Part shown: positions 4,407 to 61,079 of the stretch, piece by piece
Position numbering within the stretch: the first letter of the stretch is position 1
Layout of the letters: each line of letters starts with the position of its first letter
NCBI GenBank assembly: GCA_003056085.1
Contig: LSNK01000002.1
Coordinates: 110,575 to 174,574, forward strand
From: Parcubacteria group bacterium M6-OD1-1
GTDB lineage: Bacteria > Patescibacteriota > Minisyncoccia > GWC2-36-17 > M10-OD1-4
DNA length: 64,000 nt
Direction: 5' to 3'
The notes under the pieces: generated by a model
Told to the model about the DNA's origin: nothing
Seen by the model: only the letters and a program-made list of their open reading frames with translations
Database searches by the model: none
Position numbers and translations under genes: made by a program

Positions 4407-5087
4407 CTAAAGTACATACCTGCCGTTTTCTTCATCACGAACAACTTTTCCATTATCCAATGTTACCACTCTTTTGTTTAACATATTTATAACCTCTCTG
4501 TTGTGCGTTGCTAAAATAACGGTGGCGCCAAGTTCATTTATTTTTAAAAGCAGCCTTATAACATCCCATGTATTTAAAGAGTCTAAACTCCCTGTCGGTT
4601 CGTCTGCTATTAAAATATCCGGTCTATCCACGAGTGCTCTTGCAATAGCAACTCTTTGCTTTTCTCCTCCTGAAAGCTCGTTTGGAAACTTATCTGACTT
4701 ATGAGACAATCCGACTAAATTCAACACCTGAGGAACATCTTCTTCAACATCACTGTTACTGACACCGGAAACCTCAAGAGTAAAAGCAACATTTTCATAA
4801 ACCGTTTTTTTCGGCAAAAGTCTAAAATCCTGAAAAATCATACCAACTTTTTTTCTCAAAATATGCATATCATGTTCAGAACATAAAGAAATATTTTTTT
4901 CACCAACAAAAACCCTTCCCTCCGTCGATTTTTCTTCCCCTATGATAAGTTTTAAAATCGTTGATTTTCCATAACCTGATTGTCCAACAATAGAAACAAA
5001 CTCCCCTTTTTTTATATGGAAACTCACATCATTTAAAGCTTTTGATTCGTCTTTATATACTTTTGATACGTGATCGAAAATTATCAT
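4407..5087 (-). CDS. ftsE: cell division ATP-binding protein FtsE
   Basis: Walker A GQSGYGKST, ABC signature LSGGEKQRVAIARAL, Walker B ILIADEPT. Confidence 0.85.
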   Translation of the reverse strand: MIIFDHVSKVYKDESKALNDVSFHIKKGEFVSIVGQSGYGKSTILKLIIGEEKSTEGRVFVGEKNISLCSEHDMHILRKKVGMIFQDFRLLPKKTVYENVAFTLEVSGVSNSDVEEDVPQVLNLVGLSHKSDKFPNELSGGEKQRVAIARALVDRPDILIADEPTGSLDSLNTWDVIRLLLKINELGATVILATHNREVINMLNKRVVTLDNGKVVRDEENGRYVL

Positions 5088-5146: not shown

Positions 5147-6260
5147 CTATTTTTTTATTTCTGATTCTATAAATTCATCAAGGTCGCCGTCAAGCACCTT
5201 GTCAACTTGTGAAGTCTCTGTATTTGTCCTATGATCTTTTACTAATTTGTAAGGATGCAGAACATAAGACCTTATTTGACTTCCCCATTCTATTTCAACT
5301 TTTTTTCCTTTAAGTTCTGAAATTTCTTTTTTCTTCTGTGCTTCCACTTCCTTAATCAACTTTGAAGCTAAAAGCTTCATCGCTATTTCTTTGTTTTTCG
5401 CTTGGTTTCTTTCACTTTGGCATGCAACAACTATACCCGTCTGATTATGTTTTATCCTTACCGCTGTTTCTCTTTTGTTGACATTTTGACCTCCCGGACC
5501 GGAAGATCTAAATGTATCAATTTGAAGATCTTCGTCTTTTATATCCACATCTGAAATACTTTCAATCTCCGGCATCACTTGAACATAAGAAAAGGATGTA
5601 TGTCTTAAATTTTGCGCAGAAAACGGAGAAACTCTGACAAGCCTATGAACTCCCGTCTCTTTTTTTAAATATCCATAAGCATACTTGCCGGAAACACCAA
5701 ATGTAACATTTTTCGTGATGATTCCTGCGGTTCCCGACTCTTCGCCTGTGTGGTGGTGAAAAATAGTAATTTGCCAACCTCTTTTTTCCGCGTATTTTTG
5801 ATACATTCTCAAAAGCATAGAAGTCCAATCTTGAGCATCGGCTCCTCCCGCTCCTGAGTATATTGATATTATAGCATGATTCTTATCAAACTTTGAAGAG
5901 AAGAAAACTTTTATCTCTTCTTTTTTAAATTTTCTTTCAAATTCAGAAATTCTTTCTGATAAATCTTTTTCAAATACTCCTTTTTCCTCAAAGTCTTCCA
6001 TCGCTTCAACCTCCTCTGCATCTTTTTTTATTTTATCAAATTCATTTAAAAAATCTTCTATGGTTTTTACCTCGTCTTTTAGAGAATTGAGTTCTGCTGT
6101 TATCTTTTTTGCACGAGAAGAATCATCCCAAAAATTAGGATGCACTGTTTTTTCTTCCAACTCTTTAATTTTCTTTTCAGTTTCAACTAAGTCAAAGCCG
6201 GTCTCTCATTTCTGAGAGCCTTTTTTTCAAATCTTTAATTTTTTGTTTTATTTCATCCAT
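5147..6260 (-). CDS. prfB: peptide chain release factor 2, made by a programmed +1 frameshift that joins a 21-codon ORF0 to the 337 aa ORF
   Basis: RF2 signatures SPF and GGQ (SSGPGGQNVNK). Upstream ORF0 MDEIKQKIKDLKKRLSEMRDRL ends at CTT TGA C (minus strand, forward 6191-6197). A +1 shift continues into ...DLVETEKKIKELEEKTVHPNFW. Confidence 0.85.
6191..6197 (-). promoter_or_regulatory. prfB: prfB programmed +1 frameshift site CUU UGA C
   Basis: Canonical RF2 autoregulatory heptamer on the minus strand; the in-frame UGA is followed by C. Confidence 0.8.
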
Positions 6261-13354: not shown

Positions 13355-15043
13355 TTATATTTTTTCAGAACCGTTAACTTGAGAAGGATAACTTTTTGAT
13401 AAAAACATTCTTTTTATAGGTAATGTAAACGCTTCCCAAAAAGCAAAAAACTCGGGAATTTTAAGAAAATACGCGCAGCCGATGTACACAAAAAGCCCAA
13501 CTAAAAATGCCGCCGCTCCTTGCAGGAATATCCCTAAAAAAGTATGCATATTTACGATGTCAGCCAAGAAATAAAGCGTCGGATAAACCGTAACACCCAT
13601 GGCAAAAACAGCTAAATTTATTCTGTTTACCGAATAAAGTATTTTATCGCTGCTGTACTCCTTGATGCTGTGGGAAAAAGAAAAATAAAGCCATAGCAAG
13701 TTAATCACACTCGCAATAGAAAATGCCAAAGGAAGCCCCAAAACAGCAATATCAGCTATGTCAGAAACCTTAAAAGCCTGCCCCAAAACAGTTCTAAATA
13801 CTCCTTCGGTTTTTAGAAGATTAACAAAGAAAAAACTGAGTCCTATATTTATAGCCAAAGATGATACATTTATGAAAACAGGTTTTTTTGAATTTCCCAT
13901 GGCAAAAAAAGCACGGGAAAATAATGGAACCAAACTTTGCGCAAAGACAGACAAAGCAAAAAGCCCTAAAGCGGCAGCTGTTAATCTTGTGTCCTCCCAA
14001 GAAAACTCTCCATAACCATAAAGAATTCTCACAATTTGCGCTCTTTCTAAAATTAAAAATACAGATATTGGAATAACTAAAAATAAAATTTGATTTACCG
14101 TAGAATAAAATTTAATCAAAAATTCTTTCATGTCTTTTTTTGCATAATTTTCCGAAAGTGATGGAAAAACAGCGGTAACAAAAGATAAAGCCACTATGCC
14201 TATAGGCACATATTGAAGATCATTTGCAAAATTAAAAATAGCTATACTTCCGGAAGCCAACGAAGAACCTATAAAAGTTATGACTATGAAATTAAGCTGA
14301 TAAGCAAGAAGACTGATTACTCTTGGCGCCGCCAAAACATACATTTTTTTAAGCCCGGGGTGAAAGACATCAAAAGAAAATTCATACTTAAAACCTAGTT
14401 TATACACAGCCGGCAACTGAACCAACAAATGCATAAAAGCCCCCAAAACAACACCATAAGCCAATCCTAAAATTCCAAATTTAGAAACCAAAAATAACGC
14501 TCCAAATATAATACCAATATTATAAAAAATAGGAGCAAGAGCAAAAGCAAAAAATCTTTTTTGAGCTTGCAGAAAATTACCCAAAATACTTGAGACCCCC
14601 AAAAGTATCGGGGACAAAAGCATTATTCTTGTCAGATCTACTGTTGCTTTGATTTTTTCCTCAGAAAAACCTCCAACCAACAAAGACATAATTTCTTCTG
14701 TAAATATGGCTAAAATAGCCGATGCCACAATAACAAAAAAAACAAAAACATTTAAAACGGTATTTGTAAGATGCAACGCCTCTTTTTTGCTTTTTTGCAG
14801 ATATTCAAAAAAAACCGGAATAAAAATAGCTCCTATGGCTCCAACTATAAAAATATTATAAATTAAGTCCGGAATTCTGAAAGCTGAAAAATATATATCT
14901 GTCGCATCCCCCGCTCCGAATTCACTTGTGAAGATACTGTTTCTTAAAATCCCTAAAATTCTGGAAATCAGCGAAAAAAAGCCAATCATTAATGCGGCTG
15001 ATATTATAAACTTGGATTCTTTATTTAGTATATTTTTTATCAA
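13355..15043 (-). CDS. murJ: lipid II flippase MurJ (MviN)
   Basis: 562 aa, about 14 transmembrane helices, N-terminus ...RILGILRNSIFTSEFGAGDATDIYFSAFRIPD typical of MurJ. Confidence 0.8.
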   Translation of the reverse strand: MIKNILNKESKFIISAALMIGFFSLISRILGILRNSIFTSEFGAGDATDIYFSAFRIPDLIYNIFIVGAIGAIFIPVFFEYLQKSKKEALHLTNTVLNVFVFFVIVASAILAIFTEEIMSLLVGGFSEEKIKATVDLTRIMLLSPILLGVSSILGNFLQAQKRFFAFALAPIFYNIGIIFGALFLVSKFGILGLAYGVVLGAFMHLLVQLPAVYKLGFKYEFSFDVFHPGLKKMYVLAAPRVISLLAYQLNFIVITFIGSSLASGSIAIFNFANDLQYVPIGIVALSFVTAVFPSLSENYAKKDMKEFLIKFYSTVNQILFLVIPISVFLILERAQIVRILYGYGEFSWEDTRLTAAALGLFALSVFAQSLVPLFSRAFFAMGNSKKPVFINVSSLAINIGLSFFFVNLLKTEGVFRTVLGQAFKVSDIADIAVLGLPLAFSIASVINLLWLYFSFSHSIKEYSSDKILYSVNRINLAVFAMGVTVYPTLYFLADIVNMHTFLGIFLQGAAAFLVGLFVYIGCAYFLKIPEFFAFWEAFTLPIKRMFLSKSYPSQVNGSEKI

Positions 15044-18555: not shown

Positions 18556-18780
18556 AAAAATATCTTTAGATATAAAATTTATACATTTATAATGTGTTTT
18601 ACACCACTAATGTGGTTGACACTGTGGATAACTATATGTTATATTTACCAATAGAAGCATGCAATAATAGCTTACGAGATGCTGTGATGTTCCCTCAAAG
18701 CATTTGAGACTTAAGTTGCAGGCAACCATCTTGCAAGACGCTGCTTCTATTAAAAAAAGTGAGTTTTTTGCTCGCTTTTT

Positions 18781-59581: not shown

Positions 59582-60301
59582 CTAAAAATAAAACTGGTTT
59601 TTACCAAAAAGAACTGAGCTTGATGTTTTTGACCCGTGATGATTGATTTTTAAAACATCAACGTCAATATCAAGACCTGAATTTGATAAGTTTAACTCCT
59701 CTTTTAACTCAGCATCACCGGAAAACAAAAATTTCCTATCAAAAAATTTTAAAATCAATGCTAAAGAAGTATTATTTGGATTTTCCACTTTCACCCCTGA
59801 CATGTCAGAAAAAGGATATAAAACATCCATTGAAACAAATTCACCTAAATTTATTTGAACTCCCGCCTTTGCTTCTATTTTATTTATATTTTTTTCCTTT
59901 ACTAACCCGGACAACTCTTTGTAAAGGCTGTTTTTGTATTCAATGCTGGAAAATAATATATTGTCCACTTTATATCTTTTTAAAACATCAATGAGTCCGA
60001 AAATATGATCTTTTTGGGGATGCGTTATCACTAAAAGGTTTATTTCTCTATCATAAAAAGGCATAACTTTAGAAAGCTCAGATAAAACGGAATTGTCCGG
60101 ACCTCCGTCTATCAAAACCTGAATTTTTTCAGGTGTTTCAATGAAAATCGCATCCCCTTGCCCTACATTTAAAAAATAAATTTTTAAATTTCCATCTGCG
60201 CCATACTTAAAAATAAAACTCCAAATAAATATCACAATAATCAACACTCCACCCCAAAAATATAATTTATTTTTTGTATTTTTATTAAAATTAAAAATCA
60301 T
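59582..60301 (-). CDS. comEC: ComEC/Rec2 C-terminal metallo-beta-lactamase domain fragment, separated from the comEC body by a transposase insertion
   Basis: One transmembrane helix, then MBL-fold motifs VITHPQKDH...GDAE...HHGSK. Its start codon directly abuts palindrome P1. Confidence 0.6.
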   Translation of the reverse strand: MIFNFNKNTKNKLYFWGGVLIIVIFIWSFIFKYGADGNLKIYFLNVGQGDAIFIETPEKIQVLIDGGPDNSVLSELSKVMPFYDREINLLVITHPQKDHIFGLIDVLKRYKVDNILFSSIEYKNSLYKELSGLVKEKNINKIEAKAGVQINLGEFVSMDVLYPFSDMSGVKVENPNNTSLALILKFFDRKFLFSGDAELKEELNLSNSGLDIDVDVLKINHHGSKTSSSVLFGKNQFYF

Positions 60302-60307
60302 CCCCTC

Positions 60308-60332
60308 AACTTAGGGGTGCAACCCCTAAGTG
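60308..60332. repeat. REP-like palindrome P1 (CTTAGGGGTGCACCCCTAAG)
   Basis: Perfect 20 nt palindrome between the comEC MBL fragment and the transposase stop. Confidence 0.7.
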
Positions 60333-60346
60333 ATTTAACGCTAAAA

Positions 60347-61024
60347 TTATTCCAACAGAAAACTTTCTACCTCTTTTAATCTTTTTCTTCTTTCTAAAAT
60401 AGACTCCAGAGACTTTTTTGCAAATTTTCTATAATCTTCTTTATTTTTAAACTGATTTAAAATAATATCTTTCTTACAAAAATTATTTTCTGTATTTTCT
60501 GTATACTCCATCCAGCTTGACCTGCTTTTAACCAACTTAGGGGTTGCACCCCTAAGTTGATGAACTTCATTATTTAAATTAACATAAACACTCGTGTTTA
60601 AAAGTTGTTCGTTTGAATCTATATGCACGGACTTAAATCTTCCTTGAAAAAGCACTCCTGAACGATTATATTTTTTGTTAAAATATGAAGTATACCCGCC
60701 CAATCTTCTCATAAACTCACTAATACCACCATCAACAACTTGCTCTAATATAAAATGATAATGATTTGGATTAAGACAAAAAGCTAAAATATTTACTAAT
60801 TTAGAATCATTAACCAACTTAGGGGTTGAACCCCTAAGTTGGTTAATTTTAAATGATTGTGCGTAAATACTGCCTATAGGATTTATATTATTAAATTCAT
60901 TCATGCTCTGATAAAATCTATCAACATCATATTGGTCTAAAAAAACATTACGCTGATCTACGCCACGATTACAAATATGATAAAACTCATTATTTGTAAT
61001 AAATTGTATTTTTCTATTACCCAT
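60347..61024 (-). mobile_element. RAYT/IS200-like HUH Y1 transposase (transposase_17 family), 225 aa, with two in-frame palindrome insertions
   Basis: HUH motif NPNHYHFIL. Tyr-rich GGYTSYFNKKY, then GVLFQGRFKSVHIDSNEQL (the RAYT-type GxWQxRF motif). Peptides QLRGSTPKLV and QLRGATPKLV are encoded by palindrome copies at 60533-60560 and 60813-60841. Confidence 0.65.
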
Positions 61025-61040
61025 ATACTTAATATTGTAC

Positions 61041-61079
61041 CATAAACTTACTTAGGGGTTGAACCCCTAAGTAAGTTTA
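61041..61079. repeat. REP-like palindrome P4 (perfect 39 nt: ATAAACTTACTTAGGGGTT-G-AACCCCTAAGTAAGTTTAT)
   Basis: Lies exactly between the transposase start and the stop codon of the comEC N-terminal fragment. Confidence 0.75.

Follow-up and report, generated by a model that had tools for sequence, protein, structure and literature searches.

Close to the end of a 64,000 nt stretch of the genome of Parcubacteria group bacterium M6-OD1-1, an ultra-small member of the Patescibacteria (contig LSNK01000002.1, positions 110,575 to 174,574; here called the window), a gene for a Y1/HUH transposase-like protein lies between genes for ComEC-N and MBL proteins. The gene (60347–61024, minus strand, 225 aa) was recognised from its match to Pfam Y1_Tnp, its motifs and a fold search, and it resembles the RAYT transposases that accompany repetitive extragenic palindromes (REPs). 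It is associated with a REP-like palindrome, CTTAGGGGT-NNN-ACCCCTAAG, one copy of which lies on each side of the gene and two within its open reading frame (ORF). The four copies fall within 762 bp, where 0 are expected by chance, in agreement with an earlier sequence-only reading that had counted four in about 800 bp; there are none elsewhere in the window. A scan with CTTAGGGGTNNNACCCCTAAG, allowing up to 2 mismatches, returned only positions 60310, 60536, 60818 and 61051, and found nothing in 100 shuffles. Similarly, the 8-mer TTAGGGGT occurs 8 times against 1.64 expected, and 8/8 occurrences are arms of the four palindromes, here named P1 to P4. A chance origin is excluded.

Read in the direction of the gene, the first copy is P4 (61042–61080), the 5′-flanking hairpin, which has 19 bp arms and a 1 nt loop. 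Its first base is the last base of the ComEC-N stop codon, and 18 nt separate its end from the Y1 start codon. P3 (60809–60847) also has 19 bp arms and a 1 nt loop, and encodes I60 to N72, including the decapeptide QLRGSTPKLV (residues 62–71), in the loop that links helix alphaA to the strand preceding the HUH motif; this position is referred to as site A. P2 (60533–60559), at site B, has 12 bp arms and the loop TGC (plus strand). It encodes Q156 to L164, directly past the Tyr147 helix, and residues 156–165 read QLRGATPKLV. P1 (60309–60331), the 3′-flanking hairpin, has 10 bp arms and a GCA loop (plus strand) that is inverted relative to the loop of P2; it is found 15 nt past the Y1 stop codon and 7 nt ahead of the MBL start. 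Successive copies are fairly regularly spaced, at 226, 282 and 233 bp. Both in-frame translations given in the sequence-only reading were recovered, as was its placement of one peptide before the HUH motif (H88-Y-H90) and the other after GxFQGRF (here GVLFQGRF), the latter also following the catalytic Tyr147. It had assigned the longest arms, up to 19 bp, to P1 and P4, which is correct for P4; P1 has the shortest arms, and it is the intragenic P3 that shares the longest with P4. Folded as single-stranded DNA, P4, P3, P2 and P1 gave −17.4, −18.8, −12.3 and −9.5 kcal/mol, respectively, with z-scores against shuffles from −8.6 (P4) to −4.0.

The protein matches Pfam Y1_Tnp (PF01797) with 31.7 bits, above the gathering cut-off of 23, and removal of residues 46–75 raised this to 34.1 bits over profile positions 7–119. 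With the RAYT model NF047646, the native protein aligned only from residue 69 to 152 (profile positions 39–131). Deleting residues 46–75 made the match contiguous over positions 5–131, deleting residues 157–163 extended it to position 143/146 and increased the score from 29.8 to 36.3 bits, and with both inserts deleted the score was 38.2 bits. Both hairpin-encoded segments are thus extra relative to the RAYT and Y1 profiles, as the sequence-only reading had suspected for the decapeptides. An AlphaFold model built on 117 homologues, among which H88-Y-H90 and Y147 are invariant, had a mean predicted local distance difference test (pLDDT) score of 76.9 and the beta-alpha-beta-beta-alpha-beta-alpha order of Y1 transposases. 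Internally, pLDDT fell below 50 only at residues 63–72 and 158–162, which are the two hairpin-encoded peptides. The top Foldseek match was 4ER8, the Escherichia coli RAYT bound to its REP hairpin (E 3e-4), followed by the TnpA of IS608 and ISDra2, with probabilities of 0.99–1.0 for 4ER8, 2A6M, 2XM3 and 2VJU. No TnpA was recovered when PDB sequences were searched with either the family profile or the protein alone, so that the fold search was needed, and a PHROGs search returned nothing useful.

These comparisons also bear on the second proposal in the sequence-only reading, that the ORF is a shorter TnpA fused with its flanking subterminal hairpins and neighbouring sequence. Such an origin would fit the regular spacing of the copies and the position of the HUH-to-Tyr catalytic core between the two internal hairpins. 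However, residues 8–45, N-terminal to P3, match Y1/RAYT profile positions 5–35 and form strand beta1 and helix alphaA with the insert removed, and the segment after P2 continues the conserved RAYT tail, including the SSW motif at 169–171, to profile position 143/146. Because the parts flanking them match the Y1/RAYT profiles, both hairpins interrupt the catalytic domain and do not bound it. As residues 8–45 belong to that domain, a fusion is effectively ruled out.

The whole unit, comprising P4, the Y1 gene with P3 and P2, and P1, is 778 bp (60302–61079, minus strand) and fills the spacer between the ComEC-N stop and the MBL start, with both flanking gene ends intact. Two related contigs encode a ComEC-N that is 69% identical; its gene overlaps the MBL gene by 4 nt in L088 and is separated from it by 9 nt in L090, with NDK downstream in both, as in the window. 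As the site is empty in these relatives, we conclude that the unit was inserted as a block, hairpins included. It did not split a formerly continuous ComEC, an explanation that we considered and rejected as the closest ComEC relatives are natively split into a 440–458 aa N part and an MBL gene.

A word-index search with the protein yielded 1371 matches, and all of the named ones are from Patescibacteria. A library clustered at 50% identity gave 191 clusters at E ≤ 1e-30, rising to 2861 at E ≤ 1e-10. The heptapeptide pair, allowing up to 1 mismatch, is at the same two positions in 96/120 of the closest homologues, compared with only 14/133 diverse cluster representatives and 1/665 shuffles; some diverse representatives (P0293, P0332 and P0357) have hairpin peptides that are expanded or repeated in tandem, either at site A or at a third position. 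In two protein alignments (A1 and A2), both peptides are at fixed positions with the consensus QLGGxTPK(L). Within a protein the peptides match, and they differ between proteins, examples being LGNPTSK/LGNPTSK, LSGETPK/LSGETPK and LRSSASK/LRSSASN. What has been conserved is the palindrome at the DNA level, along with its match to the flanking copies, and not a peptide sequence. Because the two positions are common to 96/120 homologues, the hairpins were not acquired specifically at the window locus. The suggestion that REP-like elements invaded their own mobilising gene holds as evolutionary history, given the extra segments, their low pLDDT and a case in ligA described below, and fails as an event at this locus. 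It had been set against the possibility that the segments are conserved native parts of the clade; retention in the clade is what we found (96/120, and A1), with the peptide sequence itself not conserved.

DNA sequences were compared across 79 related Patescibacteria loci. A conserved gene neighbourhood was considered and rejected, as 269 neighbouring ORFs fell into 213 clusters. The usual layout places hairpins at about −40, +178 and +455 and just past the stop codon; all four are present in 32/79 loci and three in 24/79. The 5′-flanking hairpin was found in 70/78 loci, site A in 49/79, site B in 57/79 and the 3′-flanking hairpin in 65/79, so the internal hairpins have been lost more often than the flanking ones. 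One clade lacks site B entirely, has the sequence HK[IL]KxDxFRSSW and retains an intact ORF, and a second gene copy in L049 has only the flanking hairpin pair. In nearly all loci, the hairpin has the foot (C)ACTT[GA]G ... C[CT]AAGT(G). The hairpin sequence is locus-specific (CTTGGGGGTC, CTTGGCGGT, GTGGCGGTC, CTTGGAAGC and GAGGACGTC, among others). Arm identity is 0.885 within loci, with 54% of pairs identical, and 0.616 between loci, with 0.95% identical.

Covariation was examined in a gapless site B alignment (A3) of the 46/78 sequences that have the hairpin in register. In A3, 90.4% of cells are paired against at most 49.6% in slid controls; the 90.4% is inflated by the in-register restriction, which does not affect the compensatory counts relative to their controls. 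Nine of the 12 pairs vary on both sides, and the compensatory cells number 83, compared with 27.3±5.0 after shuffling; 0/500 shuffles reached 83. Where palindromes are imperfect, the imperfection is replicated in the other copies, sometimes inverted (L007, L030, L046 and L077), and about half of the site pairs have their loops in opposite orientations. The shared imperfections and loop inversions suggest that DNA has been copied between sites, rather than that each stem has been selected independently.

The hairpins show the behaviour of low-copy REPs as well. In L057, the hairpin of the locus is present in frame in the gene for NAD-dependent DNA ligase, ligA (1597–1620), where it is read as ELGSSTPKR in the adenylation domain, shortly ahead of the KIDG motif. 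Its phase and peptide are the same as in the Y1 gene 1.7 kb downstream. A further copy in L057 lies between two small genes at 4442. L056 contains three extra copies of its own hairpin (7141, 7986 and 9080), 0.85–1.1 kb apart and upstream of the Y1 gene, which bracket neighbouring genes, one for a DUF1189 membrane protein, and form a small local cluster. In L092, two palindrome copies 3 nt apart with inverted loops form a REPIN-like doublet (5148–5192) inside a 358 aa ORF, 2.4 kb from a Y1 paralogue that has a different repeated peptide (VDLRCP.).

On the basis of the observed anatomy of the unit, the layout common to its family, the covarying stems, the concerted evolution of the copies, the insertion, the fold and the placement of the peptides in loops, we consider it probable that this is a RAYT-type unit in which REP-like hairpins of its own have colonised two loops of the enzyme that tolerate them, and are kept identical to the flanking copies by copying at the DNA level. 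The unit would consist of a gene that encodes a Y1/HUH single-strand DNA nuclease-transposase and has a copy of the cognate hairpin on each side, and this outer pair would delimit what was inserted between ComEC-N and its MBL partner gene. The enzyme may recognise the hairpins as folded single-stranded DNA, by analogy with the TnpA of IS608 (2VJV) and E. coli TnpAREP (4ER8). The internal copies would be old, or recurrent, in-frame REP insertions into two surface loops, tolerated because they are translated as short flexible loops rich in Gly, Ser, Thr and Pro (L-G/R-G-x-T-P-K). Gene conversion or enzyme-mediated replacement, in either orientation, could then homogenise the four copies. Re-templating from neighbours would thus account for copies that are uniform within a locus and drift apart between loci, for the imperfections that they share, for flipped loops and for their frequent decay. 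We infer the copying mechanism itself, and likewise that the internal copies have no dedicated function.

A number of points weigh against this interpretation. The NCBIfam RAYT equivalog cut-off of 80 bits is reached neither by the native protein (29.8 bits) nor with both inserts deleted, and the canonical 5′ REP foot, GT[AG]G, is absent from the hairpins. Binding and cleavage of the hairpins by the enzyme are presumed from the analogous systems, and the restriction of A3 noted above overstates its pairing. Solitary copies number about a dozen in approximately 1.1 Mb of related loci, with none outside the unit in the 64 kb window, and as dispersed copies are this rare, a REP "population" is barely present. 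Mobility is at most occasional, given that, in a search for recent transposition, the 22 contigs carrying one homologue, taken from several samples, all had it in the same context. Only one insertion event was observed, with no circle and no second copy of the unit. Genomes with two copies (L002 and L005) have divergent genes with different hairpins, no genome was seen with several near-identical copies, and no relatives were found in viral contigs. Finally, that two fixed sites have been maintained in many lineages may indicate selection on the internal copies.

It is possible, though in our view rather unlikely, that the intragenic hairpins are functional cis elements rather than passengers, giving the enzyme additional binding sites by which to sense or restrict its own gene. 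They would then act in autoregulation, in preferential loading of the enzyme in cis or as recombination joints for module exchange between related elements. The retention of the same two positions in 96/120 close homologues would favour this. So would mosaic loci, in which two hairpin types are combined as 5′+A and B+3′ (L003 and the window) or as 5′+B and A+3′ (L025), and the promoter-like region that the 5′ hairpin overlaps in many loci. A site A hairpin of quite different sequence is also often found in distant Y1 paralogues (35–47% identity, with the motif YIHLNP..PWSS) that are found no more than 10 kb from the main gene in eight loci; most of these have their own, different flanking hairpins, and none has a site B hairpin. 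Against a cis function, it is the internal hairpins that are preferentially lost, a matching pair is kept in only 14/133 diverse representatives, a whole clade does without site B, and no deletion variant joining A exactly to B was seen. The distant paralogues include L001:7281-7973, L015:6390-7052, L047:3360-4025 and L048:6958-7689, and others are found in L011, L031 and L037.

Usefulness of the internal copies to the element, which we rate no higher, could also take the form of a stop-codon switch. Flipping the 1 nt loop of P3 would convert TCA to an in-frame TGA, and as the central codon of many site B hairpins is TCA or TTA, only one orientation leaves the ORF open. The flipped state exists in L062, in a partial Y1 copy (14728–15003; residues 1–71) that is 83% identical to the main copy 8.8 kb away. 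There, the 1 nt loop at site A has changed from C to G, creating an in-frame TGA, and similarity stops just beyond the hairpin. A similar N-terminal fragment of another subfamily is present in L013 (1611–1904, minus strand). Partial copies that terminate near hairpin A are among the points in favour of a cis function. That the gene is a substrate of its own product, with enzyme binding, exchange between hairpins or loop inversion at the in-frame copies serving as a self-limiting switch or as module-swapping joints, is a more doubtful extension of the same idea.

Alternatively, the palindromes could work as RNA structures, within the mRNA and its flanking parts, for example by stabilising the message, slowing translation or terminating transcription. 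The transcript is AT-rich and its GC-rich stems would fold, in most loci the 3′ copy comes directly after the stop codon, and many REPs have been argued to act as RNA (Di Nocera 2013, PMC3733652). However, internal mismatches are not biased with respect to the sense strand (17 G.T against 15 A.C), loop orientation flips freely, and no stem in the window is followed by a T-tract, the sole terminator-like call being a 5 bp pairing at 60302–60317. No Rfam family matched the hairpins, which returned only sub-threshold generic hairpin matches to miRNA precursors. Given the lack of mismatch strand bias and of an Rfam match, an RNA role is not favoured; alone, it would leave the shared loop and arm sequences, including the shared imperfections, unexplained, and we consider it improbable.

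About as improbable, or slightly more so, is that the palindromes are duplex operators for a dimeric repressor, possibly the C-terminal helical tail of the same protein. Their dyad symmetry is perfect, related proteins of RAYT subclass 2.1 have tails resembling a helix-turn-helix (HTH) (PMC6006769), and in 9 loci a left-arm TTGG precedes, by exactly 17 nt, a TAnnAT box ending 6–9 nt before the ATG. The TAnnAT hexamer follows just after the 5′ hairpin and ends 0–14 nt (mostly 4–9) before the ATG in 31/60 related loci, and in the window a possible extended −10 box, TGGTACAAT (61034–61042, minus strand), was noted from sequence only, 9 nt before the ATG. A simple sigma-70 consensus scan called no promoter for the Y1 gene and did not pick up TGGTACAAT. 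The overlap of the 5′ hairpin with a promoter-like region, based on an uncontrolled TAnnAT count, is a weak lead, and this counts against the operator explanation. Furthermore, profile libraries detected no DNA-binding or HTH domain in residues 165–225, the helical tail that follows SSW. Repression would need no operators within the ORF or past the stop codon, and arms of up to 19–28 bp, extended differently in each copy, are more usual for extruded hairpins.

In-frame REPs within tnpAREP have been reported as a "unique feature" of subclass 2.4 (Quentin, Siguier, Chandler and Fichant 2018, PMC6006769), which is found in Cyanobacteria and Bacteroidetes and has inserts of variable length between HuH and Y, a GT[AG]G foot and the key motifs NH[IFV]H, WQ and YIxNNP. 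The unit in the window resembles subclass 2.4 in that hairpins flank the gene and sit inside it without breaking the frame, and in that the inserts map to a variable part of the predicted structure, at its periphery (PMC6006769). It differs in having two fixed sites, the first ahead of HuH and the second beyond Y, in its motifs NHYH, FQ and YVNLN (YVNLNN) and foot ACTT[GA]G, in its Patescibacteria host, and in four copies that co-evolve and are barely dispersed. Subclass 2.1, or TIRYT, is characterised by NH[YF]H, FQ, Y[IV]HLNP, an SS tail and a median length of 238 aa (PMC6006769; PMC3733652). It reportedly has no REP-like sequences nearby, having terminal inverted repeats (TIRs) and an HTH-like C-terminal domain instead (PMC6006769). 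By motifs alone, the window family is similar to subclass 2.1, sharing NHYH, FQ, Y[IV]xLN, the SS tail and, at 225 aa, the approximate length, and its nearby distant paralogues have the exact YIHLNP..PWSS motifs. In the same motif comparison, its own Y motif, YVNLN[DN], lacks the Pro, and site B interrupts what follows. Unlike subclass 2.1, the window family has hairpins, and no HTH was detected in residues 165–225.

Intragenic REPs have been documented in other genes, including that for DNA ligase (Di Nocera 2013, PMC3733652). Like these and the Rickettsia palindromic elements (PMC3733652), the internal copies are in-frame palindromes in functional genes, which for the known elements include genes for DNA repair and replication; the insertion in L057 ligA is of this type. 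In contrast to those scattered insertions in unrelated genes, the host gene of the copies described here encodes the presumed mobilising enzyme, and the sites are common to its family, not scattered.

The unit also shares with the E. coli TnpAREP system, or REPtron, whose protein is the best structural match (4ER8), a Y1 gene bracketed by cognate hairpins. E. coli differs in that its REPs are dispersed in their hundreds, the guide is GTAG and there are no copies inside the gene. IS200 is approximately 0.7 kb long, and like IS200 and IS608 the window unit is a very small single-gene element (approximately 0.78 kb) with a hairpin at each end and no evident target duplication. However, the same palindrome is found at both of its ends, which in IS200/IS608 are distinct left and right ends with guides. 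It also differs from the TnpA of IS200/IS605 (subclass 1.1) in its Y motif, YVNLN rather than Y---Q, and in the lack of near-identical multiple copies.

In a limited literature search, we found no paper describing this Patescibacteria family. If it is read correctly here, in-frame REPs in a mobilising gene are not confined to subclass 2.4 and also adjoin a branch that has been described as REP-free. REP/RAYT systems are one of the few examples of co-evolution between a bacterial enzyme and a population of short DNA hairpins, and the Patescibacteria family would be a minimal version, with four hairpins in 0.8 kb, two of which are read as protein. The process that copies the hairpins is directly measurable from sequence data, and a system of one small protein and four oligonucleotides is tractable in vitro.

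When metagenomes were screened for the exact palindrome, the same element appeared once (L115). The census was only partly informative, as approximately one-third of the matches are an unrelated REP of high-GC soil bacteria that shares the core. This REP, with the core CTTAGGGGTC[AT]GACCCCTAAG, is found in L094–L096, L100–L105 and about 40 other contigs (57–70% GC), often in closely spaced inverted pairs, and its sequence GGGGTCAG fits the TIR consensus GGGG[AT][CG]A[CG] given for TIRYT/subclass 2.1 (PMC6006769). The low-GC matches are mostly solitary intergenic copies on contigs that could not be linked to a particular gene. Some of these have copy-specific perfect stems of up to 28 bp (L128:491, L197:420, L188:7382 and L126:1003), and, as in P3 and P4, the outward extension of the stem differs for each copy. 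Insertion into existing hairpins and templated correction of the flanks are both possibilities for such stem growth. On the 3 kb low-GC metagenome contig L166, which has no Y1 gene, two copies of CTTAGGGGTC[CG]GACCCCTAAG bracket a zeta-toxin gene (915–2088); their outer arms (AAAACTA...TAGTTTT) are identical and their loops inverted.

Other features of the window were also noted. The right arm of P1 (CCCC) can pair instead with a Shine-Dalgarno-like GAGGGG (60302–60317, minus strand) that directly precedes the MBL start codon and is followed by ATGATTTTTA; this is the 5 bp alternative called by the terminator scan, and it could block the ribosome binding site of the MBL gene. The product of that gene (59582–60301, minus strand), the C-part of ComEC, is 239 aa and ends in ...HHGSKTSSSVLFGKNQFYF*, compared with 283–288 aa for its orthologues in L088 and L090. 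The last approximately 45 residues, with the conserved tail ...VGxxNxYxHP..., are apparently missing, and no remnant of them was found in other frames. Elsewhere in the window, a full-length match to the Rfam DUF3800-V RNA is present at 18653–18748 (plus strand), scoring 75.6 bits against a gathering score of 37.4.

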